Positions 1-22,617 of a stretch of 64,000 nt of DNA are shown here, in pieces. The notes under the pieces were generated by a model that saw only the letters and a program-made list of their open reading frames with translations, made no database searches and had not been told where the DNA came from. This DNA is from Myxococcota bacterium (GTDB lineage Bacteria; Myxococcota_A; Polyangia; Nannocystales; Nannocystaceae): the NCBI GenBank assembly GCA_039028615.1, contig JBCCHT010000001.1, forward strand, positions 288,001 to 352,000. The letters are read 5' to 3'. A program made the translations under genes and the position numbers. The number at the start of each line of letters is the position of its first letter. Within the stretch, counting starts at the first letter, position 1.

Positions 1-1
1 G

Positions 2-493: not shown

Positions 494-505
494 AGCCCGC
501 TGGCT

Positions 506-1189
506 CTACGACGGGTCGGTAGCACCGGGCGACACCGCGGCATGACGCAGCGCGGGTGCCCTGACCACGGGCCGCTGCTCGGCGTCTCTGATGGCGCCGT
601 CGTGACCGTAGAGGCGCATGTAGTCTTCGGGTCGGTCGACGTCGAAGGCGATGCGCGGGTTGTCGTGCACGACAACCCTCGACAGCACTCGCCGTGCCGC
701 CTGCAGGTGCTGGTCGAAGCTGGTGGGATGGCCGAACGCCGTCGCAAAGCGGCGCGGCAACGACATCCCGAGCGCATTCGTGTGCCGATGATCGTGCGCC
801 CGCACGAGTACGGCCTCATGTTCGGCGAGCGCCTCGACGAGTTCCTCGACATCGGGTGCAGTCAGCCGGGGCAGGTCGGGCATCAGCACGAGCGCTGACG
901 TCACCCCCCGCGTCGCGAGATGGGCGAGCCCCGCGTCGACGACCGCGGCCAAGTCGGCGGGTTCCGAGGGGTCGCGCAACGTCGAGGCACGATGGCCTTC
1001 GGCCACGGCCTCGACCTCGACCGAATCGGTGCAGACGACGATCCCATCCACGGCGCCGGCCAGCTGCGTCACCGCATTTTCGAAGAGCGCCTGGGCAAAA
1101 CCCCAGCGAGCCCGGTCAGCCAGCACCGGCTCGAGGCGGGTCTTGCTGTGGCGGAACGACTTCTGCGGGATGAGCCCCCAGACGCTCAC
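506..1189 (-). CDS. cofC: 2-phospho-L-lactate/PEP/3PG guanylyltransferase (F420 biosynthesis)
   Basis: LIPQK..SKTRL, MPDLP, TNALG, FGHPTSF..H and FDVDRPED motifs; GTG start overlaps the cofD stop (GTGA). Confidence 0.9.
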   Translation of the reverse strand: MSVWGLIPQKSFRHSKTRLEPVLADRARWGFAQALFENAVTQLAGAVDGIVVCTDSVEVEAVAEGHRASTLRDPSEPADLAAVVDAGLAHLATRGVTSALVLMPDLPRLTAPDVEELVEALAEHEAVLVRAHDHRHTNALGMSLPRRFATAFGHPTSFDQHLQAARRVLSRVVVHDNPRIAFDVDRPEDYMRLYGHDGAIRDAEQRPVVRAPALRHAAVSPGATDPS

Positions 1190-2091
1190 CGCAATCGCTC
1201 CGCTGCGAACGCGAGGACTCGCTGGGCGAGGGCCACACGCTCGTTCCGAGATTTCATGATCGTCTCCGTCGCGAGAACGGGCAGTCCGGTAACGGAGTCG
1301 CCATGCTCGACCACCATACCCGACAACAGCGAGCCGTAGTGCCTCGCGATTGCGTCCGCGGACGCGGGGACTCCGGCCAGCTGCGGGATCATCGTCGCCA
1401 GCGGTCCCTTGATCGCGCGGCCACCGACGATCGGGCTGACGGCGACCACGACCTTCTCCTGCAGTGCCTGACGGACGCCCTCGAGTCGCAGGATCGGATC
1501 GATCGATACATAGGGATTCGACGGACCGATGATGACCACATCCGCACCTTCGATGGCCCTCAGCAGACCGGGAGCGGGCGGCGGTCGGTGCTCGAAACGA
1601 ATCGCCTGGACCTCTGGCTCCCCGCGGCGACGAACGAGCCAGTGCTGAAACGACAAGGTCCCCTCGCCGACGGTATCGACCAGCGTCGGGCAGGGCTCGT
1701 CGCTCATCGGGACGATGCGGGCCGTGATCCCGAGGGCACCGCACAGCCGGGAGGTGACCGCGCTGAGAGACTCCCCTCGGCGCATGGCGTCCGTGCGCAG
1801 CAGGTGAGTGGCCAGGTCTCGATCACCGAGCGCGAACCAGTCCGGCCCGCCGAAGGCTCGGATCTGCTCGAGCGCGCCGAAGGTCTCGTCCTTCAAGCCC
1901 CAACCGCGCGTCTCGTCGGCGAGCCCGGACAGCGTGTACATCACGGTGTCGAGGTCGGGACAGACGGACAGCCCGCAGTGGACGAAGTCGTCTCCCGTGT
2001 TCACGACCGCCGTCATCGACGGCGACAGCTCGTAGAGACCGTCGAGCAGGCGAGCGCCGCCTACCCCCCCGGACAGAGCGAGCACCTTCAT
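1186..2091 (-). CDS. cofD: 2-phospho-L-lactate transferase (LPPG:Fo)
   Basis: [43 protein letters not shown]. Confidence 0.95.
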
Positions 2092-2870
2092 GCGTAGAGG
2101 TCCTCGTGCGGGCGGCGGTTGATCTGCTGGGCCGTGTCGGCCGACGCGGGAAAGTGAAGGCCACGCACGACGACGAGCGCCCGCCCTTCCGCCGCCTGGC
2201 CCGCCACGAGATCGGCGGTGGCCGCCACTTGGTCCGCGAGCGCGGTGGTCGTGTGCTCCAAGGGCCGTCCCTGCATGTCACGCTGGTTGCGTTGATCCCA
2301 AAGTGGAGGCAACCCGGCGCAACCGATTGCCACCCCCACCGTACCCAGGCGAAACGGTCGCCCGAACGAGTCGCTGACGACGACTCCGATCCGCGGCGAG
2401 AAGACCTCTCGGAGCGCCTGCGCCGAGCGATCGGGATCCACTGGGAGCAACACTGCCCATGGACCCACGCTCGGTGTCGCATTACCGCCCGGCGCGGCAT
2501 TGCTCAGGTCGATTCCCGCATTGGCCATCACGAAGCCCAAGCGGTGTCGCACGATCAACACGCCCTTTTTTGCCCGGGAGACCATCGTTGATTCACCGAG
2601 GATCAACTCGACCAAGCGAGGGTCCTTGTCGACTTCGGCCGCCAGCGAGTTCGCGCGGGGAGAGGGCGATACCGTGCTCAAATCGACGAATCGTCCCTCG
2701 GCGCGCGAGAGCACTTTCGATGAGAACACGAGGACGTCTTCGTCCTGCAGTTCCAGGCCCGCACGTCGGAGCGCGATGATGGCCAATTGCCCGACATCGT
2801 CTCCAGACTGGACCTCTGGAAACCCGGGTACCGCTGTTACTTCCAACCGAGAATCACACCGTATTTGCAT
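2088..2870 (-). CDS. cofE: Coenzyme F420-0:L-glutamate ligase, single domain
   Basis: [31 protein letters not shown]; no C-terminal nitroreductase domain. Confidence 0.93.
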
Positions 2871-2907
2871 GTGACTCCGTAGCGGCGGCGACGGTACACT
2901 ACCGGGC

Positions 2908-3543
2908 TTGAAGATCGCAATCGTTGGTGGCACCGGGAAAGAGGGCAGCGGCCTCGCCGTGCGCTGGCTCAACCATGGACACACGGTCATGATCGGCTCT
3001 CGTGATGCCGACAAAGGACGAGCGCACGGTGAAAAACTCGGCGTGCAAGGCATGGGTAACGAGCAAGCCGCCGGCATGGCGGAGGTCGTCGTACTCACCG
3101 TCCCCTATTCCGCTCATGCGTCCACGCTCGAGGCCATTGCGCCACAACTGCGCGGGAAGATCTTGATCGACGTCACCGTGCCGTTGCGCCCTCCGAAGGT
3201 GAGCCGAGTCCAGCTGCCACCTGGCGGCGCCGCGGCACTCGAAGCACAAGCCATCGTCGGACCGGACACCCCCGTCGTCGCAACCCTTCATCACGTGAGC
3301 CACACGCACCTGGCCGGCACGGGAACGATCGAATGCGACGTGCTCGTGGCCACGGACGACGCTCGTGCCCGGGAGGTCACGCTGGAGCTACTCCGCGACC
3401 TCGGGCTGCGCGGACTCGATGCCGGGCCGCTCGCCAACGCGGTGGCCCTCGAGTCTCTCACGCCCGTGTTGATTCACCTCAACCGGCGATACAAGATCAG
3501 CAACGCGGGCGTCGTGTTCTCTGGCATCGGGTCGACGGACTAG
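2908..3543 (+). CDS. npdG: NADPH-dependent F420 reductase
   Basis: [39 protein letters not shown] start. Confidence 0.92.
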
Positions 3544-3549
3544 CTCGGC

Positions 3550-4746
3550 TCACTCTTGCACGAAGGGAGCGTCGGTCTCGCATCGGGCGACGACCCGTTC
3601 GACGAAACGCGTCGCGGCGTCGAGCTGCGGAAGCGTGACGAACTCGTCGGGGCGGTGGGCTTGCGTGATCGAGCCGGGCCCGCAGATCAACGTCGGGGTG
3701 CGCAACGACTCTTGGAACAGGCCCGCCTCCGTGCAGTAGTCGACCTGCTGCGCCGAGCAACAGTGCCCCTCGTCGTGCTCCAGCAAGGTGCCGAGGACGG
3801 CGAGAAGACCCTCGCTGCCCTGGGAGCTCAGCGCGGGTAGGCTCGCGATCTCCTCCGTCTCGATCCGCGGCAAGGGGTTCCCTTGGCGATCGCTTCCCTG
3901 GGCGGGCCGCGACTCGCACCACGCCGCGAACTTCTGCAGCAACACCTCGCCGTCGACCCCGGGCAGGTGCCGGTACTCCCACAGCAGCTCCGCGAACTCG
4001 GGCACGATGTTGATCGCCGCGCCCCCGCGGATGACCCCGAGGTTGATGGTCGTGTGCGGGTATTCGAACGTCGTCGCAGGTGGGGGCGCCGTGTTGCGCA
4101 GCTCCTCCCCACGCTTCGAGAGGTAGTCCAGCACCTGCGCCATTTCCGCTATGGCACTGACGGCATGCGTCTGGGAGCTCGAGTGACCCGCACGCCCGTG
4201 GACCGAGGTCTTGAGCAGCTTCATGCCCTTGTGTGCGTTCACGGGCTCCATGTCGGTGGGTTCACCGACGATGCAGGCCGCGGGCGTGCCGAGTCGCTTG
4301 GTCAAAATTCCCACCGCTTCTCGGGCCCCGTGGCAACCGACCTCCTCGTCGTACGTCATCAACAGGTGGATGGGAGTCTGCAACCGAGCGGGGTTCATGC
4401 GAGGCACCGTGGCCAGCACCGCGGCGATGAACCCCTTCATGTCGCAGCTCCCCCGCCCGAACAGGCGGTCTTCGGCCAGCCACGGGTCGAAGGGATCACG
4501 CGACCAATTCTGGCCATCGATGGGGACGACGTCGGTGTGCCCCGAGAGGATGACCCCAGGCCGATCGGTCGGTCCGATGGTCGCGATGAGGTTCGCCTTC
4601 AGCCCGGTGGCGTCCTTCTGAATCTCGAACTCGATGCCGAAGCCACGAAGATACGAAGCCACGAAGTCGATCAGCTCGAGGTTGGAATCGCGGCTGACCG
4701 TTGGGAAGGAAATGAGCTCCCGAGCGAGTTCAACAGTGCTTCGCAT
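3550..4746 (-). CDS. argE: Acetylornithine deacetylase-like M20 amidohydrolase
   Basis: SGHTDVVP, GRGSCDMKG, YDEEVGC, GEPT, AHRPDE. Confidence 0.88.
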   Translation of the reverse strand: MRSTVELARELISFPTVSRDSNLELIDFVASYLRGFGIEFEIQKDATGLKANLIATIGPTDRPGVILSGHTDVVPIDGQNWSRDPFDPWLAEDRLFGRGSCDMKGFIAAVLATVPRMNPARLQTPIHLLMTYDEEVGCHGAREAVGILTKRLGTPAACIVGEPTDMEPVNAHKGMKLLKTSVHGRAGHSSSQTHAVSAIAEMAQVLDYLSKRGEELRNTAPPPATTFEYPHTTINLGVIRGGAAINIVPEFAELLWEYRHLPGVDGEVLLQKFAAWCESRPAQGSDRQGNPLPRIETEEIASLPALSSQGSEGLLAVLGTLLEHDEGHCCSAQQVDYCTEAGLFQESLRTPTLICGPGSITQAHRPDEFVTLPQLDAATRFVERVVARCETDAPFVQE

Positions 4747-5053
4747 CACGAGGATCTTAGCGCACACCCAAGTGCCTGGCCCGCGAGGTCTGACGCTTCA
4801 TTTCCGCCCCGCGCGGGTGTGAACTCGAGCCGTGAGAGACCCGACCTCGACGTCGCGAATTCGCGTTGGCTCGAGGTCATGGGACACCCGACTTCGCGGC
4901 TGCTGCGCAACCTCGATTCGGCCGCCGAGACCAGCACAAAGAGCCGAAATTCGATTTTTTCGACGTGAGCGAAGAGTCTTGCCAGCGGCTGAGGCTATGC
5001 CACTATCCCTTGCACGGCGCCGGCCATACTGACGCCGACAACGAGGTTTGAGC

Positions 5054-6007
5054 ATGCCCCAAAAGCGCGTCGGACTCTGGTTTTACACCAACGAACACGG
5101 ACACGTCATTCGCCAGGAAATCGTGGACCGACTCGAGGCAGCGGGACTGGATGTCACCTACGACTTCGACATGAGGGAGTGCTACTGCCTCAACGGCCAG
5201 GTCTTTACTCGCGACGGCATCAACCTGTCCGAGATGGACGTGTTCCACTACATGAATGCAGAGGAACGCAACGACCACCAACACGACATGCTTCGTTTGA
5301 TCGAAGAGTCGGGGGTCGAGATGTTCAACTCCTACGCGTCCTATACCTACGCGAACGACAAGTTCCTCGCGAACTGCAAGCTCCGCCAAGCAGGTGTCAA
5401 TGTCGCGGACTCGATGCTGATCCCCGTCAACTTCGACGAGGACCGGATCCGGCGCATCTTCGACGAGTGGAAGAGCTTCATCATCAAGCCCCGGGACAAG
5501 ATCTGTGCAACCGGGATCATGAAGATCGACAGCTACGAGAAGTTTTACGACTTCTACTTGTTCGCCAAAGAGTTCGTCGGGAACCTGTACATCGAGCGCT
5601 ATATCCCCTTCGAGAAGCGTGACATTCGGGTCGAGATCTTCGACGACGAAGTCGTGGGCGATGGCTTCTCTCGGGTGATGGGCCACTCGTTCAAGACCAA
5701 CGTCAGGTCCGGCGGCCGCGCGACGTTCATTCCCGCCGAAGACGACGCCAAGCAGACTGCATTGGATGCTGCGCGTGCGCTCGGCATCACCACCACCATC
5801 GTCGACATGGTCCGCAACACGGAGACCGGCGAGCCGTACGTGCTCGAGGTCAACCCGCTGCTCGGCGTGTTCTACGGAGCCCACTACGCGTCGCTCGGGC
5901 AGCCGGTCCCCGAGTACTTCGCAGAGATCGACAAGGTGAAGATCGAGTACATCGTCCGTCACATCATCCGGCTCGCCGATCCTTCTGCTGCCCTTCCCAA
6001 GCAATGA
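5054..6007 (+). CDS. RimK/LysX/CofF-family ATP-grasp ligase
   Basis: NDKF, IIKP, YIERYI, DIRV, FKTNVRSGG, VDM...LEVN. Confidence 0.85.
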   Translation: MPQKRVGLWFYTNEHGHVIRQEIVDRLEAAGLDVTYDFDMRECYCLNGQVFTRDGINLSEMDVFHYMNAEERNDHQHDMLRLIEESGVEMFNSYASYTYANDKFLANCKLRQAGVNVADSMLIPVNFDEDRIRRIFDEWKSFIIKPRDKICATGIMKIDSYEKFYDFYLFAKEFVGNLYIERYIPFEKRDIRVEIFDDEVVGDGFSRVMGHSFKTNVRSGGRATFIPAEDDAKQTALDAARALGITTTIVDMVRNTETGEPYVLEVNPLLGVFYGAHYASLGQPVPEYFAEIDKVKIEYIVRHIIRLADPSAALPKQ

Positions 6008-6795
6008 ACAACCGCACCTTGCCCGGTCGCATCACGCTGTGCACCGGTGCGGCCGGTAGCATCGGTCGCGCCATCTGCCGTCGTCTGCTCGACGAGGGAG
6101 ACATCATCGTCGCCGTCGACAAGAACGAGGACGGCCTCGGTCGGCTGCGAGAAACACTGGCCGTCGCGGACGAGCGCCTTCACCTTCTGGGGGTCGACGT
6201 CACCGACGCAGAGGCGCTCGCCCGGGGGCTCGAGCCCATCACCCGCACGACGGGACCGGTGCAGCTGCTGATCAACAACGCCGGGGGCAATCGCACGACC
6301 CTGCTCGAGGAGACCTCGATTCACGACTGGAAGGCCGACATCGAGCTCAACCTCAACGCGGCGTTCTACGTCTTTCAGCAGGTGCTCCCGGGCATGCTCG
6401 CCGCAGGTCGAGGCTGCGTCCTCAACATCGGGTCGGTCAACGGCCTGTCCACCTACGGCGACCCGGCCTATAGCGCGGCCAAGGCCGGTCTCATCAGCTT
6501 CACCCGATCCATCGCCACCGAGTACGGGCGGCGGGGTATTCGGGCCAACATCATCTGTCCCGGCACGGTGAAGACCGAAGCATGGGACGAGATGCTGCGA
6601 CAGAAACCGGAGCTATTCGAACGGCTCTCGGCCATGTGCTCCCTGGGCGACATCGCTACGCCCGAAGACGTCGCCGCCTGTGTCAGGTTCCTGGCCTCCG
6701 ACGAAGCCCGTCTCATTCACGGGAGCACGTTGGTCATCGACGGAGGGCTCACCGCGGGTGTCCCGACGGTCATGAACGAGTTTACCAACGACTAG
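6004..6795 (+). CDS. Short-chain dehydrogenase/reductase
   Basis: TGAAGSIG, NNAG, YSAAK; ATGA overlap with the ATP-grasp gene. Confidence 0.92.
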   Translation: MNNRTLPGRITLCTGAAGSIGRAICRRLLDEGDIIVAVDKNEDGLGRLRETLAVADERLHLLGVDVTDAEALARGLEPITRTTGPVQLLINNAGGNRTTLLEETSIHDWKADIELNLNAAFYVFQQVLPGMLAAGRGCVLNIGSVNGLSTYGDPAYSAAKAGLISFTRSIATEYGRRGIRANIICPGTVKTEAWDEMLRQKPELFERLSAMCSLGDIATPEDVAACVRFLASDEARLIHGSTLVIDGGLTAGVPTVMNEFTND

Positions 6796-6828
6796 GACAC
6801 CTAGCCGCTGGTTGTGTGTGGAGAGAAA

Positions 6829-7971
6829 ATGTCAGCCATCATCGAGAAGTTTCATTTTGACGAGGTCGTAGTCCCGTGCCATCCGGGTTCCATCAACTCG
6901 GAGGGGCTCGACAAAGCCCTGCACCGGCAGCCCGTCGCCGGCAAGAAGGCCTGGGGCATTCAGTTCTTCGAGCTTCGCAAGCTCATCCTGCGGGTGGAGC
7001 TCAGCAACGGTGTCGTGGGTGTGGGCGAGTTCTACCGCGACCACAACTGGGGCAAGGTCAAGGGCATGGCCGAGATCCTCATCGGCCGAGACATCAACGA
7101 GTTGTCCCTGCAGGCTCTACCGATCGGCGAGTGCAGGGAGTACTTCGGCTTCGAATGCGCGCTCTACGATACGGTCGCGAAGCACCGCGGCATGCGGGTC
7201 GTCGACCTGATCGGAGGCCCCGTTCGTGAGCACGTCGCCGTCAGTGCGTGGTCGAGCCACCGAACCGTCGAGGACATCGGACCCCTCGCCGGCCGTTATC
7301 ACGAGATGGGCTACGACGTCATCAAGCTGAAGTCCGACCTCGAAGACGACGTGGTGCGCTGGTGTGAAGAGATCAAGAAGCACGCCCCCGGCATGCGCGT
7401 GATCTTCGACCCCAATGCTCGCTGGAAGAACGCGGGCTATGTTCGCGAGCGACTGCGGGGCCTCGAGCGTGTCGGCAACGTGATGCTGCTCGAAGATCCG
7501 CTGCCGCACTGGATGTATCACGAGTACGCGGAACTGCGTCGATTCAGCTCCATCCCCATCGTGCTCCACGTCTCCCCTCCATATACCGAGGAAGGCCAGT
7601 CGGTGCATGACGCGATCAATGCGATCAAGCATGGCTCGATCGACGGGTTCAACTTCAACGCAGGTGTCGACAGCTTCAAGCAACTCACGGGTGTTGCGTC
7701 CGCGGCCGGGGTCAACTGCTGGCACGGATCCGAGATCGACCTCGGCGTCCTCGAGGCGATGTTCATTCACAACGCGATCGCGGCCAAGTGCTGCGTGTGG
7801 CCCAGCGACATCTTCGGCCGCCTGCTGCGTGAACACGATCTTCTCAAGACCCCGCTTCGCATCGAGGCCCCGTACGCCTATCTTCCCGAGGGCCCGGGAC
7901 TCGGGGTCGAAGTCGATCGAGACGCGATCGAGCGCTACAAGACCGGAGAGTGGTCGCTGTCCATGTCCTGA
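6829..7971 (+). CDS. Mandelate racemase/muconate lactonizing (enolase superfamily) enzyme
   Basis: ALYD..AK, KLK, FDPN, LEDP, GPGLGVEVD. Confidence 0.85.
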   Translation: MSAIIEKFHFDEVVVPCHPGSINSEGLDKALHRQPVAGKKAWGIQFFELRKLILRVELSNGVVGVGEFYRDHNWGKVKGMAEILIGRDINELSLQALPIGECREYFGFECALYDTVAKHRGMRVVDLIGGPVREHVAVSAWSSHRTVEDIGPLAGRYHEMGYDVIKLKSDLEDDVVRWCEEIKKHAPGMRVIFDPNARWKNAGYVRERLRGLERVGNVMLLEDPLPHWMYHEYAELRRFSSIPIVLHVSPPYTEEGQSVHDAINAIKHGSIDGFNFNAGVDSFKQLTGVASAAGVNCWHGSEIDLGVLEAMFIHNAIAAKCCVWPSDIFGRLLREHDLLKTPLRIEAPYAYLPEGPGLGVEVDRDAIERYKTGEWSLSMS

Positions 7972-7980
7972 GACCGAAGA

Positions 7981-8025
7981 CTCCTTCTGCGCGGCGATGC
8001 TCGGTCATCTGCATCGCCGCAGGAG
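7981..8025. terminator. Stem-loop between convergent operons
   Basis: GCGGCGATGC-N10-GCATCGCCGC, extended by CTCCT/AGGAG; no U-tract. Confidence 0.45.
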
Positions 8026-8138
8026 GTGTCTCGACGCCCGGCCTGCCTGCTGTACGAACCCGGCTCGGCGTGGTCGCGAGGGTGAACCGAGGGTCGGGCT
8101 GACGACACTCGGTCCACTCGACGCGTACGGGTAGTCGG

Positions 8139-9047: not shown

Positions 9048-9082
9048 CTGAACCTCGTCGTCTCGCCGTCACCGACAGCCAG

Positions 9083-10447: not shown

Positions 10448-10451
10448 GGGC

Positions 10452-11831
10452 TCAGAACTCCGCGTAGGCCTCGACGATGGAGCGCATGCTCGACCCCGAG
10501 CGCAATAGGCGGAGCGCGTGGCCTCCCGGGCACTCGAGCTGCTCTGCGCGTCGATACAGCGGCTTGAGGAAGACCTCTTCTCCTCGGCCGCGCTCTTGCA
10601 GACCGCGATGAGAGAGTTCGACGAGGCGCTCGAGGACCTTGCGCATCTCCGCCGCCGGGGCGATTTCTTCCTGGCGGCCGACGTTCACCAGCCGTCGGAG
10701 CTCGGAGTTCGACAGAGACGTGCCGAGCGCGTCGAGCACTTCCTCCACCTCGAGGAGATGCTCGCGACATCCGAGCACGAACGCGGCCGGAGCGAACGCG
10801 TCTCGCAGCGGCTGCTCGCAGAACGAGCGAATCTCCACCGTCTTGTGCTTCGTGAGCGTGATGTTCTTGAAGCCCTTGAACCCCTCGAGGTGCTCGAGGC
10901 TCGGATGGACGACCGTCTCGCGGGGCTTGGTCCAGTCCTCCATGAACCACCCGGGGAGGGTCTCCGTCTCGGGCATCAGCAAGTAGTCGCGGAGCGGGAG
11001 CGGACGGAAGCAGATGAGCCCCGGGTCGGGCGTCTTCCACATCGCGAGGTCGGCCATGGCCTCGCAGACGTCCGTGACGCTGCGAAAGTCCCGGTCGTGT
11101 GGACCGAGGTTGCCCTCGAGCGTCCCGTAGACGCTGTCCGCATAGAACAGGTCTCGGCTTCCCACCCACGGCCCGACCGCCTCCCCCTCGCGCGGAGGCA
11201 CGATGGAGTTGGAGAACAGTAGAGCGAAGATCCAGTCGAGCTTCGAGTAGACGCGGAACACATCGGGCAGCTCGTCGACACTACAGTCGACGTGCACCTG
11301 CGAGGCGTTGACGAACGCGAAGAAGTCTCGATGATAAAACTGTGACTGTTTCGGGTGCACCTGCGCGAAGTGACGAAGCAGTCGATAGTTCGAGACCTCC
11401 AGGGGGTCGGTGTTCATCGTCTGGAAGTTGGGGTGGAGCCCCAACCCAGACAAGACCACGCCCTCGGGGGCCAAGGCCTGCTGCATGCAACGAAGGTAGT
11501 CGTAGCTGCGCTCGGCGACCTCGTTCAGGTCCTGCCCCGGTGCGAGCGCCAGCTCGATCATGTGGAAGCAGTACTCGAACGCGATGAAGTCACCGTTGCG
11601 GGTATTCGTGGCCGCGACGAGTCGGCCCGACGCGTCGCGCTTCCCGGGCTCGAGGGCAAAGGTCTCGACGAGACGCTCCAGCGCCGCGACGGCCACGTCG
11701 GGTTCGACGGAGCCGCCATCGAGCGCGACCAGAGGGATCTCGAGCTCGATACCGAAATCAGAGCCGGACTTTCGAACCATCGGCTCGACGTAACGTTCAA
11801 AGAGAATTTCGGCCGCGTGCATGGGAATCAA
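10452..11831 (-). CDS. Glutamate-cysteine ligase family 2 (GCS2)-like gamma-glutamyl ligase
   Basis: FGIELE, GLGLHP, ASQVHVD, VEIRSFCEQP. Confidence 0.75.
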   Translation of the reverse strand: MIPMHAAEILFERYVEPMVRKSGSDFGIELEIPLVALDGGSVEPDVAVAALERLVETFALEPGKRDASGRLVAATNTRNGDFIAFEYCFHMIELALAPGQDLNEVAERSYDYLRCMQQALAPEGVVLSGLGLHPNFQTMNTDPLEVSNYRLLRHFAQVHPKQSQFYHRDFFAFVNASQVHVDCSVDELPDVFRVYSKLDWIFALLFSNSIVPPREGEAVGPWVGSRDLFYADSVYGTLEGNLGPHDRDFRSVTDVCEAMADLAMWKTPDPGLICFRPLPLRDYLLMPETETLPGWFMEDWTKPRETVVHPSLEHLEGFKGFKNITLTKHKTVEIRSFCEQPLRDAFAPAAFVLGCREHLLEVEEVLDALGTSLSNSELRRLVNVGRQEEIAPAAEMRKVLERLVELSHRGLQERGRGEEVFLKPLYRRAEQLECPGGHALRLLRSGSSMRSIVEAYAEF

Positions 11832-14371
11832 CCGTGACGGGATGCAGAGCGCGGAGTCGAAGTCTCGGCTTCGACATCATCACCGCGGCGGGCGGTCGCA
11901 TCGACCGCGCACACGCGAAGCTCACACGTGTAAGAGCGCCCGGAGGCGTCGGGAAGCCAGGTCTCGTGGGGCCCGGGCAGCATCTCGGAGACGTCGACGT
12001 ACTCGACCTTCGACGTGATGTAGAGCAGCGCCTCCACGAGGAAGGGGTTGTCGAAGTCGATCATGATCGGCTTCCGCTCGCTCGGGCTCTTGACGAAGAC
12101 GCGACGGGGAAGACCGTGGGTCTGCGCCCAGCGACGCACGGAGAGAAAGCTCGCCGCATCTCCCCCCGCGGCCTTCGTGGGACAAGGCAGGCGCCACCGT
12201 TCGCGGGAGATGACGACCCCATCGACGGTGACCCGGGGCAGGCGCTCGCTGTCGAGGAGCTGAAACGACTCCGGCGCAGCGTTGACCAGGTAGTTGTCGA
12301 GCACCACGCGAAAGTCCAGCGTCAGGCGCCCATCTCGTGTCGCCACCACGAGCGTGCCCTCGGCGTCACGAGTGACGACGAGGTCTCCGATCGCGAGGGT
12401 CCGCGCCACCGCCGGATCCGGGGGAGGCCACGAAGTGTCCAGCACCGTGAGGGACGGGCAGTTGGGCGGCACGTGATGCCGCGCGCGTTGAAACTCTTCT
12501 CCCGGCGGAGCGGGGCGAACGACCTGCGGCAGGTCCTGCGCGTAGGCCTGCGTCGCGACGGCGAGCACGTCTGGGGAGAGCTTCAGGATGCATGGGAACA
12601 GCACCGTGTTCGCGCAGGGGTGAATCTCACCGAGCACGGGCAGGAAGTCGCCGCTCGCCATGGCTTCCGCGCTCGATGCCGCGAACATCAGGTCGGGAGA
12701 CTGAAAGCAGGCGTTCGGCCACCCCGGCTCGCTCGCCTCGAGCAGCGGCCCCAGGCGCTTCCTCATCTCGGTCACCGTCAGCTCGACGGGCGCGTAGTCG
12801 GCATCGACATTGAGCGAGTCCAGCCACGCCCGCTGGAAGTCGACGAGCAAGACCTCACCGCGAGCTTGGTTGAGGAATCGTTCGGACGCCGTCGCGAGAA
12901 AGCGCGGGAAGTCGGCCCTTCCCGTGGCGTCCGCGAGCTCGGTCTGCAGCGCATCGAACTCGGGGAGCAGGTCCTCCCACAGCCGGGCCGTGTAAGCACG
13001 GATCGTGTCGTAGACGAGCTCGAGCGGCTCGAGGCGCGGCAAGACGTCTTCGCTGACGTTCATGCCGACATCTCGAGCGCATTCGAGGTACGCGATGCTT
13101 CGCGCTTCGTAGGTCTTGCCTCCGCCGCGGCGTGCCGACCATCCCGTGACCTCCTCGAAGAAACGCTCGAGTTCGGTCAACGCCGCCTTCACCTCCGCGA
13201 CGCCTCGAGACTCTTCGAGGGCGGTCCGCAGCTGCTCGAGCCGCTCGAGTCGCGCCTCCCACGGCGCATGGGCATCCGGGGGGAGAATGTTGGCGAGCTC
13301 CGTCCGTAGGGTCAGGTTCGGACGCGTGTCGAGCACGGGCACGATGGGCACGCGGGTGATGGCTCCACGCTCCTCGATCGAACTCAGGGCGGATTCGAGG
13401 TCGGCCGGGCTGTCGAAGACCGACTCGGCCTTGCACAGCAGTTTCTCGAGTTTGTGGATTGCACGGGTCCCATCACACAACCCCACGAGGCGTACCCAGG
13501 CCGGAGGAAGCTCCTCCGTCCGCCCATCGGCATGACGGAGCGTGTGCCCCTCCACGTAGACCGTGGGCATCTTGCGGGGTCGCAGATGCGGCTTTGCCTG
13601 GGGATCGCGTGCGACGGCCTGCGCGATCTGGACCATCGCCCAGTGCTCCAGGAACACCTCGCGCTTTCGCAGCAACGAGGCACCCGGCTCGAAGCTCGAG
13701 GGCCCATCGACGAACTCGCCGACCGAAGCCGCACCGAAGTAGCCAATCGTGTCGTTCTTGGCCAAGAAGCGCTGCAGGTACATCATGGCGAGCCGCTCGC
13801 CCGTACGCACCGAGTGATTCCGCTCGACGGGAAGACCATCGCCGATGAGGGCCTCGACCCGCGTGGAGGCGGTGGGGCTCTGCCAGTGCACCGCTTCGCG
13901 CACCGCGTCGTCGGAGACGAGCTCCCGCAAGGTCTGCCGCACTCGGGGCAGCTCTTCGCCCCACGCGGACATGAAGCTGTCGAACGCGGCCTCTCTCGAT
14001 TCTTCCGCGACGACCCATTGTCCGAGTTGCGGAATTCGGCCGCCCAACGCCGCGAGATCCTCCTCGCGCAAACGCTTGCTCGCCCGAAGCTTGGTTCGGG
14101 CCCGCCGTGCCCGGATCTTGAGGGCACGACGCTCCGCTTCGTCGACCTCCTCGTAGGCATACTGCTGCAGGGCCTTCAGCGCCTGCTGTCGGGCGAGTGC
14201 GGCTTCGTGGGTCCGAGAGGCAAGCTCGTCTGCCGCAGCGGAAGCGGCATCGACACAAAGGCGCCCGAGCCCCTCGATGGGAAAGCCCGCCGAGCGTACG
14301 AGGAACCACTGCCAATACCGCCATCGCGATGCTGAGGAGCCGCGGTGATGGGACAGTGAAGGAGTCTGCAT
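11828..14371 (-). CDS. Stand-alone lantibiotic dehydratase glutamylation domain (small LanB / PEARL-like peptide aminoacyl-tRNA ligase)
   Basis: LVRSAGFP, YLQRFLAKNDTIGYFG, SPD, GEIHP, ERKP..IDF, SEMLP...ELR; about 847 aa; no elimination domain. Confidence 0.85.
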   Translation of the reverse strand: MQTPSLSHHRGSSASRWRYWQWFLVRSAGFPIEGLGRLCVDAASAAADELASRTHEAALARQQALKALQQYAYEEVDEAERRALKIRARRARTKLRASKRLREEDLAALGGRIPQLGQWVVAEESREAAFDSFMSAWGEELPRVRQTLRELVSDDAVREAVHWQSPTASTRVEALIGDGLPVERNHSVRTGERLAMMYLQRFLAKNDTIGYFGAASVGEFVDGPSSFEPGASLLRKREVFLEHWAMVQIAQAVARDPQAKPHLRPRKMPTVYVEGHTLRHADGRTEELPPAWVRLVGLCDGTRAIHKLEKLLCKAESVFDSPADLESALSSIEERGAITRVPIVPVLDTRPNLTLRTELANILPPDAHAPWEARLERLEQLRTALEESRGVAEVKAALTELERFFEEVTGWSARRGGGKTYEARSIAYLECARDVGMNVSEDVLPRLEPLELVYDTIRAYTARLWEDLLPEFDALQTELADATGRADFPRFLATASERFLNQARGEVLLVDFQRAWLDSLNVDADYAPVELTVTEMRKRLGPLLEASEPGWPNACFQSPDLMFAASSAEAMASGDFLPVLGEIHPCANTVLFPCILKLSPDVLAVATQAYAQDLPQVVRPAPPGEEFQRARHHVPPNCPSLTVLDTSWPPPDPAVARTLAIGDLVVTRDAEGTLVVATRDGRLTLDFRVVLDNYLVNAAPESFQLLDSERLPRVTVDGVVISRERWRLPCPTKAAGGDAASFLSVRRWAQTHGLPRRVFVKSPSERKPIMIDFDNPFLVEALLYITSKVEYVDVSEMLPGPHETWLPDASGRSYTCELRVCAVDATARRGDDVEAETSTPRSASRHG

Positions 14372-14583
14372 GTAGTTACCCAAGATGTACGCACGCTCAG
14401 CGACACACCCAGACGACGGTGGCTTAGCATGGACTCGGCCTACGTTCAAACGGTAGAACGGCCCCCAGAGTTCCCCTGGTGACGTTCTGAGGGCAAACGG
14501 CCCGGTGTCCGCTCGGCCCCGCGCAACGCCCAGCGCCTATGAAAACCGCGCCCTCGGATCACGACCGAATTCGAGGGTGTGGC

Positions 14584-15828
14584 TCAGCCTTTGGTGGCGA
14601 CCGGGAGGTGAAAGCGAAAGCGGTTGTCTTCAATGAGACGGGAGTAGCTGCCGAATGTCGCATCTGGATTACTCACGCGATCCAGACTGGTTTCTTCGTC
14701 CGGCACGTGATCCCCGGAAAAGCGGCGAAGTGTTCGATAACGAGTATCGCGCTCGACCGGCACACGGCCGGCCTCGCGAATGATCCGTCGAAGACTCGCG
14801 GGAGATTGGAATTGCCCATGCCGAGCCCCCGCGGAAGTGGAGATACTCTCATTGATGAGTGTGCCCCCTAGATCATTGGCACCACAGCTCAGCATTGCTT
14901 GCGCCATATTGACCCCTTCTTTGACCCAGGACACCTGAATATTGCGGAAGGTGGCACCGAGCATGAGTCGCGCAATCGCGTACAGCCGCGTCACTTCATT
15001 CGCCGTCGGGCCGGGGCGGAGCGAGGGCAGAAGCCGTCGCATGTGCATCGGTGCTTCTTCGTGGACGAACGACAGCGGCACGAACTCCGTGAACCCTCCC
15101 GTTTCACTCTGTAGCCGCCGCAGATAGTCGAGATGCCGCATCCGCTGCAGGTCGTTCTCGATGTGGCCATGCATCAACGTCGCGGTCGTGGGCACCCCCG
15201 CGGCGTGCGCGGCCCGAATCACCTCGGTCCACTCTGCCGTCGTGATCCGACCCGGAGCGATTTTGTCGCGCACGCCGTCGTCGAACACCTCCGCTGCGGT
15301 CCCAGGCAAGCTGTCGACACCGGCCTCTTTGAGTTCGACGATGAACTCTGCGATTGACACCCCTCGGAGCTCGGCGCCGAACTTCACCTCTTCTGGGGAG
15401 AACGCATGCACATGCAGCGCGGGCACGGCCGCCTTCACCGCCTGCACGAGATCGACGTAGTAGTCGGGGTCCTGGCCCGGAGCGAGCCCGCCTTGAATGC
15501 AGACTTCGGTCGCCCCGTAGTCGTGGGCCTCCTTGGCGCGACGCACAATCTCGTCGGTATCGAGAAAGTAGCCCTCTTCGCTGCGGCGTGTTCGCGAAAA
15601 GGCGCAGAACCGACAGCCCTTGATGCAGACGTTGGTGAAGTTGATGTTCCGATTGATGACGTAGCCGACGTCGTCGCCCACCTGCTGCCGTCGAAGCTCG
15701 TCCGCCGTCTGCATCAGGGCATGAAGCTCGGGGCCGTTGACCGTGCACAGCCGGACGGCGTCGTCGACCGCGAGTTCACGGCCGTTCAGCACGCCGTCGA
15801 GGATGGTCCTGATTTCTCGATCAGACAT
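14584..15828 (-). CDS. cofH: FO synthase subunit CofH (radical SAM)
   Basis: NRNINFTNVCIKGCRFC, SLPGTAAE, EFVPL, NIQVSWVK, GANDLGGTL. Confidence 0.93.
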   Translation of the reverse strand: MSDREIRTILDGVLNGRELAVDDAVRLCTVNGPELHALMQTADELRRQQVGDDVGYVINRNINFTNVCIKGCRFCAFSRTRRSEEGYFLDTDEIVRRAKEAHDYGATEVCIQGGLAPGQDPDYYVDLVQAVKAAVPALHVHAFSPEEVKFGAELRGVSIAEFIVELKEAGVDSLPGTAAEVFDDGVRDKIAPGRITTAEWTEVIRAAHAAGVPTTATLMHGHIENDLQRMRHLDYLRRLQSETGGFTEFVPLSFVHEEAPMHMRRLLPSLRPGPTANEVTRLYAIARLMLGATFRNIQVSWVKEGVNMAQAMLSCGANDLGGTLINESISTSAGARHGQFQSPASLRRIIREAGRVPVERDTRYRTLRRFSGDHVPDEETSLDRVSNPDATFGSYSRLIEDNRFRFHLPVATKG

Positions 15829-16975
15829 GGGAGATTTCCTCGGACGCCAGGCGTGACCGCGCGGCATGGACCTGCTCGTGCAGCTGCGGATCCAGCCACA
15901 CCTCGTCGATGTAGCGATCGTAGATCGGCAGCCGGGGTTGGAGCGTGAAGCCCTGCTCTTCGCATCGTTGCGCCATCCGCTTCAGGTGCGGCCAAGGATG
16001 CCTCGGGTTGATGTAGTCGGGTGTGACCGGCGAAATGCCCCCGAAGTCGTTGATGCCCGCGCCGAGGAGCGCTCGAATCGAAGACGGGTTGAGGTTCGGC
16101 GGCGCTTGGATCGAGATCTCGGGGTCGAGGATCAGGCGCGCCAGCGCGACCGTGTCGAGGATGACGTCCTCGTCGGGTTCGGGAGCGTCCGCCATGCGGG
16201 TCCCGGCCACCGCCCGAAAGTTCTGCACGATGACCTCTTGGATGTGCCCGTGTTCGCGATGGCTGCGACGAATCGCGAGCAGACTCTGCACCCGCTCGCG
16301 CCGCGTCTCGCCGATGCCGACCAGGATTCCCGTGGTCATCGGGATGCGCAACGCTCCCGCCTGGTCGATCATGCGCATGCGCTTGGCGGGGCGCTTGTCC
16401 GGGGCGCGGTGATGCGGCATGCCCCGTTCGCACAGCCGAGGGCTGATGTTCTCGAGCATGATGCCGAGGCTCACGTTGACTTCTCGCAGCCGTCGCATCG
16501 CCTCGACATCGAGGATGCCCGCGTTGGTATGCGGCAACAGGCCGAGGCTCAGCGCACGCTGGCCGGCCCAGACCAGATAGTCGACCGTACTCCCCTGCCC
16601 CAGTTGCTGGAGGGTCTTGCGGTACGAGCCGAACGCGGTCTCCGGTGTGTCGCCGAGGCAGAGCAGAGCCTCTGCGCAGCCCTCGCCACGGGCGCGATTC
16701 AGGGCTTGCTCGACCTGCTCGGGCGTCATCGTCCACTCCCCCGGGTCACCCGGTGAGCGACGGAACGAACAGTAGTCGCAGCGATTGCGGCACAAGTTCG
16801 TCAGCGGCAAAAAGACCTTGGGCGAAAACGTGACCGTGTTGCCGAAGTAGCGGTCTCGCAAGGCCGCCGCCTCGGCGCGCAACTCGGCCGCTGGCACCCC
16901 GGTCTCGACCAGGGCCAGCGCCTCCCCTTCGAGGAGTAACGGTGGTGATTGCACGCGGGGCGCTTGGAGCTGCAT
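15821..16975 (-). CDS. cofG: FO synthase subunit CofG (radical SAM)
   Basis: VTFSPKVFLPLTNLCRNRCDYC, LPHTNAG, QEVIVQNF, QAPPNL, GGISPVTPDYINP. Confidence 0.93.
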   Translation of the reverse strand: MQLQAPRVQSPPLLLEGEALALVETGVPAAELRAEAAALRDRYFGNTVTFSPKVFLPLTNLCRNRCDYCSFRRSPGDPGEWTMTPEQVEQALNRARGEGCAEALLCLGDTPETAFGSYRKTLQQLGQGSTVDYLVWAGQRALSLGLLPHTNAGILDVEAMRRLREVNVSLGIMLENISPRLCERGMPHHRAPDKRPAKRMRMIDQAGALRIPMTTGILVGIGETRRERVQSLLAIRRSHREHGHIQEVIVQNFRAVAGTRMADAPEPDEDVILDTVALARLILDPEISIQAPPNLNPSSIRALLGAGINDFGGISPVTPDYINPRHPWPHLKRMAQRCEEQGFTLQPRLPIYDRYIDEVWLDPQLHEQVHAARSRLASEEISHV

Positions 16976-16996
16976 GGCTTCGTGCGAACTCGCGAC

Positions 16997-17785
16997 TCAG
17001 TCGCGCTTCGCTGCGCAGGCGGACACGAATGCCTCGTACACGCGAGTGAACCCCACGTGGTTTCGCCCGGAGCGTTCGATGTCGCCCTGAATGCCCACGA
17101 TGAAGTGGTCGGGGTCTGCCGACTCGATGCACTCCACCACGCCGTCGGGCGAGCGCCCGGAGACGATCAGCCCTTCACCGATCGTGTCGACCGCCTGGTG
17201 ATGCATCGAGGGCATGATTCCGCTCTTGCTCTGGAACGCCGCGTGCACTCGAGTGCCCTCGACGATCTCGAACGGGTGGTGATGGATGTACCCGTTGTTG
17301 TCGAGCTCGTGCATGAGGGTCGCGACGTCGGAGACTTCCTGATGGAGCGTGCCTCCGTGCGCGACGTTGAGCAGCTGCATGCCGCGGCACAGCCCCATGA
17401 TCGGCAGGCCCCGGCTCTTCGCCTCGCGGAAAATCGCCAGCTCGAAGTGGTCCCGCACCTTGTTGGGGCCCATCATCGGGGGACGCAGGTAGGGCTTGCC
17501 GAAGACGATGGCCTCGCCGCTGTAGTTGACCTTTTGCTCCTGGCCGTAGTTGGACGGGTCGACGTCCTGGCCCCCGGGGAAGAGCACCCCGTCCAAAGCG
17601 GCCACCAGGTCGGGAACGTGCTCGATCGGCGAAACGTCGGTGAGCAGCACCGGATTGCCTCCTGCGGCCGCGATCGGCTCGAGCATCGCCGTGGTGAGTA
17701 TGGTGACTTGGCGACGCAGCGCGCCGTGGACGTTCACCCAGGTGGTGAGCCCTGGAACTCCGATGAGCGGTTTTCTTGAAGGCAT
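16997..17785 (-). CDS. Gamma-glutamyl-gamma-aminobutyrate hydrolase family (peptidase C26)
   Basis: PGGQDVDP..YG, GLCRGMQLLNVAHGGTL, SMHHQA; the usual QWHPE is replaced by QGDIE. Confidence 0.85.
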   Translation of the reverse strand: MPSRKPLIGVPGLTTWVNVHGALRRQVTILTTAMLEPIAAAGGNPVLLTDVSPIEHVPDLVAALDGVLFPGGQDVDPSNYGQEQKVNYSGEAIVFGKPYLRPPMMGPNKVRDHFELAIFREAKSRGLPIMGLCRGMQLLNVAHGGTLHQEVSDVATLMHELDNNGYIHHHPFEIVEGTRVHAAFQSKSGIMPSMHHQAVDTIGEGLIVSGRSPDGVVECIESADPDHFIVGIQGDIERSGRNHVGFTRVYEAFVSACAAKRD

Positions 17786-18149
17786 TCTCTTGCTTTGGCT
17801 TTCAGGCGAGCGACCAGTCCCAGCCGGCCGGCGAACGGCCGCCAGCGGCCTCCCGCTCGGAAACGTCCGCCCTGGCGTTCGGCAATGCACAAAGACCGAG
17901 AGCGGAGCGACGAACGACGACGAGTCTGGTTTCGCTCGCGGGTACTGTGCGCTGTGCAGCCAGGCACCGAGTAACCTAGCAGGGCGACAGAGCCCCCTCA
18001 ACGAAAGTCATGGTGAAGATCTGTGGAGTCTCTTCACCTACCAATCGAGTCGTGCGAGAGGTCACGCTCGGCGCTGCCGCGGCGCATCACGTCTGGAGCG
18101 TGTCCGGGCGGTCTGCCTGCTATGGTCCGCGGGCGTTCAAGCGAGCTCA

Positions 18150-19052
18150 ATGATGTCGAAAAAACGTATCGGACTGTACATCGACCTGTGGGATCAAGGC
18201 GTCGACGGCAAGGAATATGGCTGGAAAGACGTCAAGGGAATGGCGCAGATTGCCGAGCAGAACAATTTCGACACCTTCTCGCTTCCCGATCGCTTGCACA
18301 TCTGGGGACATGGTCAATGGGAGTCGACCACCATGCTCGCCGCCGTTGCGGCAGTGACGTCCACCATCAAGTTGGAAATTGGGGTTATGCGATCGATTTA
18401 TCGCAACCCCACACTCGTCGGAAAGATCGTCGACAGTATTCAGGAGATCAGCGGAGGTCGCCTGATCTTGGGACTGGGCGCGGGCAGCGACGTCGGCGAG
18501 AACAAAGAGTACGGCTACCCCGAGAACTACCGCTATTCGCGATTCGAGGAATCTCTGCAGATTCTCCTCTCGCTCCTGCACACTGGCAAGGCGGACTTTC
18601 AGGGTCGGTTCTACCAAGCCAACAATTGCATGCTCACGCATCGCGAGTCGAAGCACCCGGTGCCGCCCCTGTTCATCGCGGCGAAGGGCCCGAAGATGCT
18701 GCGACTCGCTGCTCGCCACGCCGACATCTGGAACATTCCCATCGTCCCGGACTCCCCGGACGGGTGGAAGACCCACCTGAAGGACCTCGAAGAAGCGTGC
18801 GAGGAAGTCGGGCGAGATCCCGCGACGCTCGAGAAGCACGCCATCGTGGCGATTCCGTCCCCGAACAAGGACATCAAGCACCCCGGCGAGGGCTTCGACG
18901 GAACGCCGCTGAGCCGAGACGCCCGACAGGCCGCCGATCAGGTGGAGGTGTTCTTCGAGGCCGGGTTCAAGGAAATCCTGCTTTGGCCCGCGGTGTGCTC
19001 GGCTCAGGCCGTCGAAGAGATGGTCCCGCTCGTCGAGCTGCTGAAGAGCTAG
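18150..19052 (+). CDS. LLM-class (luciferase-like) oxidoreductase, probably F420-dependent
   Basis: LAAVAAVTSTIKL, RNP, ISGGRLILGLGAG, GPKMLRLAARHAD; flanked by F420 genes. Confidence 0.88.
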   Translation: MMSKKRIGLYIDLWDQGVDGKEYGWKDVKGMAQIAEQNNFDTFSLPDRLHIWGHGQWESTTMLAAVAAVTSTIKLEIGVMRSIYRNPTLVGKIVDSIQEISGGRLILGLGAGSDVGENKEYGYPENYRYSRFEESLQILLSLLHTGKADFQGRFYQANNCMLTHRESKHPVPPLFIAAKGPKMLRLAARHADIWNIPIVPDSPDGWKTHLKDLEEACEEVGRDPATLEKHAIVAIPSPNKDIKHPGEGFDGTPLSRDARQAADQVEVFFEAGFKEILLWPAVCSAQAVEEMVPLVELLKS

Positions 19053-19086
19053 CGACTCGCGACGCCACAGGCTCCGCCATTCGGCT

Positions 19087-19113
19087 CAGAACCCCCGGTC
19101 ACCGGGGGTTCTG
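19087..19113. terminator. Perfect 12-bp hairpin after the LLM gene
   Basis: CAGAACCCCCGG-TCA-CCGGGGGTTCTG. Confidence 0.5.
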
Positions 19114-21628: not shown

Positions 21629-21753
21629 CGGTCGCGACCTGTCGACGATAGCACGCTGATGCCGTCCCGATGATGGCCGTCCCGTGGGCCTGTTCACCGA
21701 TGGCGTGCTCAGTTGGTTGTGGGGACCGCAATGCTCCGGTAGCGTTTTGAGCG

Positions 21754-22575: not shown

Positions 22576-22617
22576 GGCCCGTGCCTCGATGCGGTGCCGG
22601 GCGTACTCTGTGCGGGC

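Follow-up and report, generated by a model that had tools for sequence, protein, structure and literature searches.

A conserved NRPS and small-LanB gene cluster with interleaved coenzyme F420 biosynthesis genes in a Myxococcota bacterium

The stretch of DNA analysed here (the window; 64,000 nucleotides, G000:C1:288001-352000) belongs to the genome of a Myxococcota bacterium (G000; 12.27 Mb in 94 contigs). Its first 19 kb are the right half of a natural-product gene cluster of about 40 kb (G000:C1 ~266.8-307.1 kb), in which a stand-alone small LanB, predicted to be a peptide aminoacyl-tRNA ligase (PEARL), occurs with a non-ribosomal peptide synthetase (NRPS), a second cysteinyl-tRNA synthetase (CysRS), several ligases and hydrolases and a complete set of coenzyme F420 genes. 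Overall, the cluster was read as an NRPS/PEARL pathway of a conserved cluster family which the F420 genes serve in G000, and this reading was given a probability of about 0.5. The extent of the cluster follows from the counterparts of the CysRS, an AurF-like oxygenase, an unknown 283-aa protein, the NRPS, a lactonase and a DegT protein which lie directly upstream of the window (C1:266.8-286.3 kb), and the first-pass annotation, which had placed the cluster at positions 506 to 19,052 of the window, had therefore drawn it too short. The remainder of the window contained ordinary housekeeping and signalling genes.

The cluster family was best traced by the enolase-superfamily gene, for which 953 relatives with identities of up to 80% were found; among them, P0206-P0213 (74-80%, on contigs of up to 28 kb) are nearer to the G000 enolase than those of G1223 and G1236 described below. 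One relative of the enolase is named Pseudoduganella armeniaca at NCBI, and its accession number differs by four from that of the best relative found for the GCS2-family ligase. An exhaustive search of the genus with the enolase showed that 2 of the 119 genomes were positive, namely G1223 (100% identity to the P. armeniaca protein) and G1236. In the DNA around the enolase (about 75 kb and 55 kb, respectively), a region of about 35 kb contained further gene families in common with G000, 13 of them in G1223 and 11 in G1236, at identities of 30-72%; the cluster family thus spans two phyla. The identities to G000 were as follows:

Enolase-superfamily enzyme: 71-72% in G1223 and G1236
ATP-grasp ligase: 62% in G1223, 61% in G1236
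Short-chain dehydrogenase/reductase (SDR): 49% in G1223, 52% in G1236
PepP-like peptidase: 45% in both
C26 hydrolase: 45% in G1223, 52% in G1236
ArgE-like M20 deacylase: 44% in G1223, 46% in G1236
AurF-like oxygenase: 48% in G1223 and G1236
Unknown 283-aa protein: 33-35% in G1223 and G1236
DegT protein: 30-31% in G1223 and G1236
Second CysRS: 30% in G1223 and G1236
GCS2 ligase: 37% in G1223; no match in the G1236 stretch
Lactonase: 32%, in G1223 only
Small LanB: 32-33%, immediately following an NRPS in both G1223 and G1236
NRPSs: several in the G1223 and G1236 clusters

The core of the family comprises one or more NRPSs, the small LanB, the second CysRS, the AurF-like oxygenase, the 283-aa protein, DegT, the M20 deacylase, the C26 hydrolase, the ATP-grasp ligase, the SDR, the enolase-superfamily enzyme and the PepP-like peptidase, while a GCS2-type ligase was present in some members only. 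The ArgE, C26, ATP-grasp, SDR, enolase, PepP and GCS2 genes are a conserved module that exists without F420 in G1223 and G1236 and are not F420 accessories. The gene order C26-cofG-cofH-LanB-GCS2-PepP in G000 corresponded to C26-unknown-GCS2-PepP in G1223, where the unknown is one 270-aa gene. The NRPS of G000 (adenylation-thiolation-condensation-thiolation-thioesterase, A-T-C-T-TE; C1:278529-283763) was bordered on both sides by shared genes. The genes specific to G000 included those of a ~755-aa protein without tblastn match in the G1223 or G1236 clusters and of a methyltransferase without match in the fetched G1223 and G1236 stretches.

Gene calls in window 1-19922 were based on Pfam and NCBIfam scans of long open reading frames (ORFs) with NCBIfam equivalog cut-offs. 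These scans confirmed all genes that had been named from the DNA letters alone, at or very near the positions given for them. The features were as follows:

2..493, plus strand: 3' end of the gene for the ~755-aa protein of unknown family, which begins at G000:C1:286223; no Pfam or NCBIfam match
506..1189, minus strand: cofC, 2-phospho-L-lactate guanylyltransferase family; TIGR03552 115.3 bits (cut-off 105); single copy
1186..2091, minus strand: cofD; TIGR01819 295.9 bits (cut-off 257.45); single copy
2088..2870, minus strand: cofE, stand-alone F420:gamma-glutamyl ligase, ATG at 2870; TIGR01916 231.2 bits (cut-off 180.65)
2908..3543, plus strand: npdG/Fno, NADPH-dependent F420 reductase; TIGR01915 179.8 bits (cut-off 149.8)
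3550..4767, minus strand: M20 deacylase of the ArgE family, conserved core; NF005710 435 bits (cut-off 412)
5048..6007, plus strand: RimK/MptN-like ATP-grasp ligase, conserved core; Pfam and NCBIfam
6004..6795, plus strand: SDR oxidoreductase, conserved core; Pfam and NCBIfam
6814..7971, plus strand: enolase-superfamily (MR/MLE) enzyme, conserved core; Pfam
8139..9047, minus strand: class I S-adenosylmethionine-dependent methyltransferase; Pfam
9083..10447, minus strand: PepP-like M24B peptidase, conserved core; NF008131 349 bits (below the cut-off of 465)
10452..11822, minus strand: GCS2-family carboxylate-amine ligase of a rare subfamily; PF04107 21.2 bits (cut-off 21)
11828..14371, minus strand: stand-alone small LanB, putative PEARL type, 847 aa, very divergent; PF04738 70.2 bits (cut-off 28) in two stretches
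14584..15867, minus strand: cofH; TIGR03551 469.1 bits (cut-off 374.1)
15821..16975, minus strand: cofG; TIGR03550 426 bits (cut-off 213.35); single copy
16997..17785, minus strand: C26 gamma-glutamyl-type hydrolase, conserved core, start at ~17785; Pfam
18150..19052, plus strand: luciferase-like oxidoreductase (LLM) of F420-dependent type, start at 18150, divergent from the C26 array; Pfam
19088..19112, plus strand: G+C-rich inverted repeat downstream of the LLM stop codon, seen in the sequence itself
19437-19922, plus strand: lipoprotein gene, the next after the LLM gene

With its start at GTG 1189, the cofC gene overlaps the stop codon of cofD, and its description as a 412-aa fusion protein was dropped as an ORF overlap artefact. 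CofE was without the FbiB C-terminal domain, and the starts of C26 and the LLM lie later than the maximal ORFs imply. The minus-strand array C26-cofG-cofH-LanB-GCS2-PepP-methyltransferase is read with C26 first, and the run from LanB to the methyltransferase has gaps of 5, 4 and 35 nt. The ATP-grasp, SDR and enolase-superfamily genes form a plus-strand operon. The inverted repeat at 19088..19112 is likely a terminator and the right-hand end of the cluster. No match was found in an Rfam scan of window 1-25000, and no tRNA gene was found in the cluster. Among 401 genomes of the phylum, G000 alone had the ATP-grasp ligase, and a further PepP on contig C54 of G000 was 34% identical to the PepP-like peptidase of the window. 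For the GCS2 ligase, the fold was backed by an Atlas model (TM 0.92 to a GCS2 cluster), and 395 representatives were related to it at E<=1e-3 among 1.84 billion proteins. Members of this rare subfamily (among P0032, P0043, P0046 and P0042) were fused, in either order, to a GshA-type glutamate-cysteine ligase in proteins of ~885 aa, and one relative was fused to a class-II glutamine amidotransferase domain; these fusions hint at a role close to gamma-glutamyl-cysteine chemistry.

The sole public run containing the stretch was labelled marine metagenome, and no RNA run was present among public runs with the stretch. One Logan contig of the likely source run covered window 1-15094 and a second covered 15067-19900 at an even depth of 16-23, which argues that the interleaving of genes is not an assembly chimera; the Logan assembly used the same reads with another assembler and is not independent data. 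Flanking-gene synteny did not give island borders, as the flanking proteins were not conserved in five same-genus genomes. Next to the cluster, two large minus-strand genes (window 19952-24198; 581 and 829 aa) showed a faint HEAT-repeat match and were otherwise without family; their single match in the five same-genus genomes was a broken, 36%-identical frame in G001.

The small LanB contained PF04738 and lacked the elimination domain PF14028. Throughout the genome, PF14028 was found only inside two full-length LanBs (contig C8 and C1:252980-254338), and the Pfam scan of the window found neither LanC nor an elimination domain, in agreement with what had been noted at first. Absence of the elimination domain from the protein and its neighbourhood is a stated criterion for PEARLs (PMC11212132; here and below, citations refer to the accessible part of each paper). 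No azole- or pyridine-forming genes and no separate elimination protein, the marks of a split dehydratase, were found nearby, which speaks against a split LanB dehydratase of thiopeptide or pyritide type. The full-length LanB ~45 kb away was rejected as a split partner, having its own elimination domain, LanC and LanA.

The best non-self matches of the small LanB had 29-32% identity, with 19 matches in total among 5.8 billion proteins, and its identity to any relative was at most 33%. A scan of species-representative genomes produced 608 LanB relatives, from which 77 loci were kept. Profile A1, built from 12 small LanBs with the window protein among them, scored small LanBs at 794-961 bits (window protein 961) and the full-length LanB of G000 at 82 bits; the LanB family profile matched TbtB (6ec7) at 3.7e-19. 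Of 49 columns with a conservation of 93% or more in a set of 96 small LanBs, the window LanB retained 44, including R26, Y198/Q200/R201, R424, D560, E582, H584 and E817/R819, whereas the full-length LanB of G000 differed at R424, D560, E582 and H584 (T, G and E at 560, 582 and 584). Arg34, Tyr426/Arg429, Asp558, Glu575 and Arg815 of BhaB7 are reported contacts to ATP, CCA and carboxylate (PMC11962472, PMC12945691), and the conserved residues of the window LanB presumably correspond to such BhaB7/TglB contact residues, as judged from close position numbers and not from an alignment. In the trees, the window LanB fell within the small-LanB family, at the end of a long branch (1.5-1.65), with Sorangium locus L006 as nearest neighbour. 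This locus carries two small LanBs and a TglH-family gene, and locus L009 carries four small LanBs. Profile, residues and trees thus place the protein among small LanBs and not with split dehydratases, the grouping that had been named as a test of the PEARL assignment, and its identification as a stand-alone small LanB of PEARL type is supported.

Other members of the small-LanB family showed unusual arrangements. At loci L013, L026, L045, L046, L051, L066, L072 and L074 (Micromonospora, Salinispora, Saccharothrix and Actinosynnema), the small-LanB relative stood at the C-terminal end of frames of 1900-2180 codons, which are either large N-terminal fusions or stop-free runs in high-G+C DNA. 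Locus L067, from a Myxococcales metagenome-assembled genome, contained five small-LanB-like ORFs of at least 600 codons within 22 kb and exceeds the four-PEARL ammosamide type.

At 44 of the 77 loci an adenylation domain lay no more than 10 kb from the LanB relative, and relatives of the cof, GCS2, PepP, methyltransferase, ATP-grasp, enolase, ArgE and C26 genes were found within this distance at none of the 77; a reach of 10 kb would miss the module in layouts of the G1223 type. No LanB orthologue was found in 60 relatives of G000. The GCS2 ligase had one weak match, far from LanB, in five LanB-relative genomes, and no match in 81 genomes of the G061 genus or 401 of its family, samples that were without the right genome. 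The enolase at E<=1e-90 was absent from 301 genomes of the G065 class in a weak search scoring up to 6 candidates per genome. A plasmid collection gave uninformative hits, namely an Embleya enolase (49.5%) with only an SDR beside it and a Photobacterium ATP-grasp (27%).

In the proposed pathway, the NRPS and the stand-alone ATP-dependent ligases would build a small non-ribosomal peptide or amino-acid intermediate. The PEARL would phosphorylate the free carboxylate of this intermediate with ATP and add an amino acid from an aminoacyl-tRNA, with Cys-tRNA charged by the cluster CysRS as the most likely donor, and the three hydrolases would cut off protecting or helper residues. Only in G000 would cofC/D/E/G/H, Fno, the F420-type LLM and the methyltransferase be woven into this scheme, and the position of cofG-cofH inside the conserved C26-to-GCS2-to-PepP operon suggests that the G000 version most likely adds an F420H2-dependent redox step together with a methylation. 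The chemistry, the tRNA specificity and the use of F420 in this scheme are predicted from gene content, homology, synteny, copy numbers and the absence of cof genes in relatives.

The cofG, cofH, cofC, cofD and cofE genes all scored above the NCBIfam equivalog cut-offs and make up a complete F420 set, and cofC, cofD, cofE and cofG were single-copy in G000. No dehydro-F420 reductase domain was seen. Together with the LLM, the cof genes stand at three places: cofCDE-npdG between the ~755-aa gene and ArgE, cofG-cofH between C26 and LanB-GCS2, and the LLM after C26. The cofGH pair lies in the co-directional array with a 21-nt gap and overlaps. The best PDB matches of the LLM were the F420-dependent Mer and a hydroxymycolic acid dehydrogenase, and among three LLMs in G000 only that of the window ranked F420 families first. 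A genome search with PF04075 gave no match either, but its control was silent too, which makes this negative uninformative. The interleaving of the small LanB with F420 genes described in the first-pass annotation therefore held, with single-copy cof genes, the only F420-type LLM of the genome and Logan contigs that span the region. Most likely the host otherwise makes no F420. The operon-embedded cofGH and the lack of another evident F420 user argue for functional integration, and F420-dependent tailoring is plausible.

Several findings weigh against this reading. F420-dependent tailoring rests on gene order in one genome. No cofD or cofG was found in G1223 or G1236, which makes the combination of the LanB cluster with an F420 pathway unusual, and no cof gene was found near LanB relatives in the 77 loci. 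Co-occurrence was seen at none of the 77 LanB loci, in neither of the two homologous clusters and in none of the four related cof clusters, and the F420 link drawn at first is thus not echoed in other genomes. The closest cof clusters (L102, G042, G002 and G055) were compact and without natural-product genes, and that of G042 has its own F420-LLM of another subfamily. For the window LLM, the ten best NCBIfam families were all F420-LLM families; the best scored 139.6 bits where 231.4 are required, and all stayed below their cut-offs. The G000 NRPS lies 16 kb from LanB and had neither a recognisable HHxxxDG motif nor the ureido-type EHHXXHDG motif, of which the latter marks the characterised sna example and not necessarily the NRPS-associated PEARL class. 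The window LanB stood apart from the Pseudoduganella LanBs in both trees; a grouping with them was not rejected in the AU test (p 0.354), for a group named after the first tree had been seen. In the 212-nt gap between cofH and LanB (14372-14583, minus strand), a G+C stem of 6-7 bp with a long loop is followed a few bases on by TTTT and could be a weak internal terminator or attenuator; a consensus scan did not flag this hairpin. Finally, no promoter motif was shared among 7 intergenic regions at the level of 11-mers.

The alternative that survives best, although doubtful, is that a mobile module of cof genes, npdG and the LLM landed and was rearranged in a variable region, where it serves an unrelated F420-dependent function or none, while the pathway operates without F420. 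F420 genes spread horizontally (review PMC8498797). The homologous clusters work without cof genes, and cofD was patchy in the lineage, being above cut-off in 4 of 61 genomes (G000 and 3 of 60 relatives, one of these among five same-genus genomes). The G+C content of the whole cluster region (64.7%, genome 68.3%) is as expected of acquired DNA. The compactness of the related cof clusters, among which L102 was the closest metagenome relative (cof identities 63-73%, cofH 73%), suggests that an ancestral compact block was split three ways in G000. The F420-LLM in the cof block of G042 indicates that the window LLM may have come with the cof cassette and be unrelated to the cluster, and no LLM counterpart was found in the fetched G1223 and G1236 stretches. 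However, the genes do not form one insert and occupy three sites between conserved cluster genes, cofGH lies within the co-directional array, and searches of the genome gave no second LLM of the F420 type.

For the amino-acid donor of the predicted PEARL, the second CysRS is the main clue. Exactly two cysS-class genes were found in each of the three genomes, and the lower-scoring copy (409-419 bits, the other 480-567 bits) lies in the cluster. Because an extra CysRS occurs in 3 of 3 clusters, Cys-tRNA is the most economical guess for the donor, and charging by the cluster CysRS is likewise a guess. It counts against this part of the integrated NRPS/PEARL reading that the copy could equally be a self-resistance gene. 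In that case the product would inhibit cysteine-tRNA ligase or cysteine metabolism, and the amino acid added by the PEARL would be unrelated. A divergent, full-length second cysS-class gene in all three clusters fits self-resistance, and aminoacyl-tRNA synthetase duplicates within clusters classically signal resistance, as for mupirocin and borrelidin. In all three clusters, however, the copy is accompanied by a tRNA-dependent enzyme, and synthetase paralogues with a supply role exist as well, among them the seryl-tRNA synthetase encoded in the valanimycin cluster. Self-resistance as the sole explanation was considered unlikely; supply and self-resistance are not mutually exclusive.

The seven-gene module (ArgE, C26, GCS2, PepP, ATP-grasp, SDR and enolase) might instead serve the uptake or catabolism of a peptide-like or gamma-glutamyl compound and merely adjoin the NRPS/PEARL genes. 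Its three hydrolases, SDR and enolase-superfamily enzyme would suit such a role, TonB-dependent receptors flank the G1223 and G1236 clusters, and enolase relatives are common across diverse phyla (953, many of them 55-62% identical). This was judged improbable, as the module contains two ATP-dependent ligases and accompanies the NRPS, LanB, second CysRS, AurF-like and DegT genes in 3 of 3 genomes of two phyla despite rearrangement.

A gene directly upstream of the cluster CysRS (G000:C1:264859-266700; L116:360-2201) encodes a 613-aa protein with an FGE-sulfatase/EgtB-like C-terminal domain, which scored 94.7 bits with SenA and 92.2 bits with EgtB, both far below the cut-offs. With the GCS2 ligase, C26 hydrolase, methyltransferase and pyridoxal-phosphate enzyme, it recalls ergothioneine-type sulfur-transfer logic; a scheme of this kind was dropped when the gene was not found in the G1223 and G1236 stretches.

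The first interpretation had been a pearlin-type PEARL cluster, and here the PEARL-type small LanB was retained while the carrier-peptide picture was not. Inspection of small ORFs with coding-type codon bias in the intergenic gaps of window 1-25000 and C1:248-288.6 kb gave no plausible carrier peptide, and the sole leader-type peptide found was the LanA of a separate LanB/LanC cluster (C1:256.7 kb). PLALA-type C-termini had 11 matches in the genome and none in C1:230-330 kb, and a search for LysW-type carriers gave none; very short or atypical peptides could have escaped these searches. With no carrier-peptide gene found, the LanB looks like a PEARL of the NRPS-associated or small-molecule kind and not like the enzyme of a classical pearlin pathway. 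In a very improbable alternative, a ribosomal carrier peptide, overlooked here or encoded elsewhere, would be lengthened by the PEARL, and the peptidases would release it after tailoring. This alternative would find a place for the M24B, M20 and C26 peptidases, which could release a C-terminal product, for the C39-ABC transporter 15 kb upstream of the window and for the weak match of the LanB family profile to PqqD-type RiPP recognition element (RRE) folds (E 0.004). RREs in PEARLs are, however, reported as dispensable (PMC11962472), the gaps searched held no plausible small ORF except the LanA of the separate cluster, no PLALA match lay nearby and LanB follows an NRPS in both homologous clusters. 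The least probable alternative, in which the PEARL, the RimK/CofF-like ATP-grasp and the GCS2 ligase would cap the lactyl or glutamyl carboxylate tail of FO/F420 with amino acids brought by tRNA and ligated with ATP and the C26, M20 and M24B enzymes would trim it to a new peptide-tailed deazaflavin, either a cofactor or a metabolite, would explain cofG-cofH in the ligase operon by FO/F420 being the scaffold.

The separate class I lanthipeptide cluster (G000:C1:250274-256979; loci L098 and L100) lies 31-38 kb upstream of the window. Its genes encode a P450, a full-length LanB with elimination domain, a LanC and a 97-codon LanA-like ORF, whose product combines a leader of the double-glycine type (GSVIGG) with a core rich in Cys, Thr and Ser. 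The C39-peptidase ABC transporter (C1:270610-273453) may belong to this cluster.

Compared with known systems, the integrated NRPS/PEARL reading places the cluster closest to NRPS-associated (SnaE) and small-molecule (SinB1/SinB2) PEARL clusters and not to the Tgl/Amm/Bha carrier-peptide type, and its LanB is predicted to be a new, divergent member of a known PEARL kind. SnaE of the threopeptin (sna) cluster of Stackebrandtia nassauensis is a PEARL acting on an NRPS product, adding an amino acid from an aminoacyl-tRNA to the free carboxylate of a small non-ribosomal intermediate, and about two thousand NRPS/PKS clusters with such LanB-like genes were counted (PMC11212132). The present cluster resembles that of SnaE in its stand-alone LanB-like enzyme, NRPS genes and lack of a nearby elimination domain and of a precursor-peptide gene. 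Unlike sna as described there, it has no ureido-type condensation-domain signature and no polyketide synthase, its NRPS lies away from LanB and F420 genes are embedded in it, and its family has a second CysRS, an AurF-like oxygenase and the seven-gene ligase/hydrolase module. SinB1 and SinB2 of the sinefungin cluster are PEARLs acting on small molecules (10.64898/2026.05.21.726688). Direct action on a small molecule, with no peptide encoded in the cluster, is proposed here as well, whereas the sinefungin system, in the accessible text, differs in its nucleoside chemistry, its use of alanine as donor and its set of genes.

The window LanB shares enzyme family and conserved residues with TglB (3-thiaglutamate), AmmB1-4 (ammosamide) and BhaB (PMC12945691, PMC11962472). 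The TglH-family gene at the nearest LanB-relative locus is a link to the Tgl type, and TglB uses Cys-tRNA, the donor suggested here by the extra CysRS. In contrast to the Tgl, Amm and Bha clusters as far as they are described in these sources, no carrier-peptide gene was found and the identity of the LanB to any relative was low. Amm4 of the ammosamide cluster, an oxidoreductase predicted to depend on F420, was not assayable in E. coli, a host unable to make F420 (10.1101/2025.09.03.674030); unlike in that cluster, as the preprint's accessible part presents it, the F420 pathway lies inside the G000 cluster. The cof genes resemble the compact cof clusters of G042, G002, G055 and L102 in their split cofG/cofH, stand-alone cofE and 50-73% identity, and differ in forming three blocks split by 11 kb of natural-product genes, with cofGH within a cluster operon. 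According to the accessible part of a 2025 paper, no F420 use in myxobacterial secondary metabolism is reported (PMC11876861). The gene combination had not been recognised from described pearlin clusters, and in the literature searched (subscription journals and preprint supplements being outside view) no description of the cluster family or of a cluster with embedded F420 biosynthesis was found, nor anything on the cluster in the literature on Massilia/Pseudoduganella siderophore clusters.

If the F420 genes serve the pathway, the cluster brings an entire redox-cofactor pathway, together with the enzyme that recharges the cofactor, into a host without F420, and it would then be a self-sufficient cassette for heterologous F420-dependent chemistry. 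Apart from F420, the results describe a conserved cluster family of two phyla in which a predicted PEARL occurs with a CysRS copy of its own, with NRPSs and with the seven-gene module of ligases and hydrolases; one member appears to lie in the named species Pseudoduganella armeniaca. This family would enlarge the still-small set of PEARLs that act outside ribosomal peptides.

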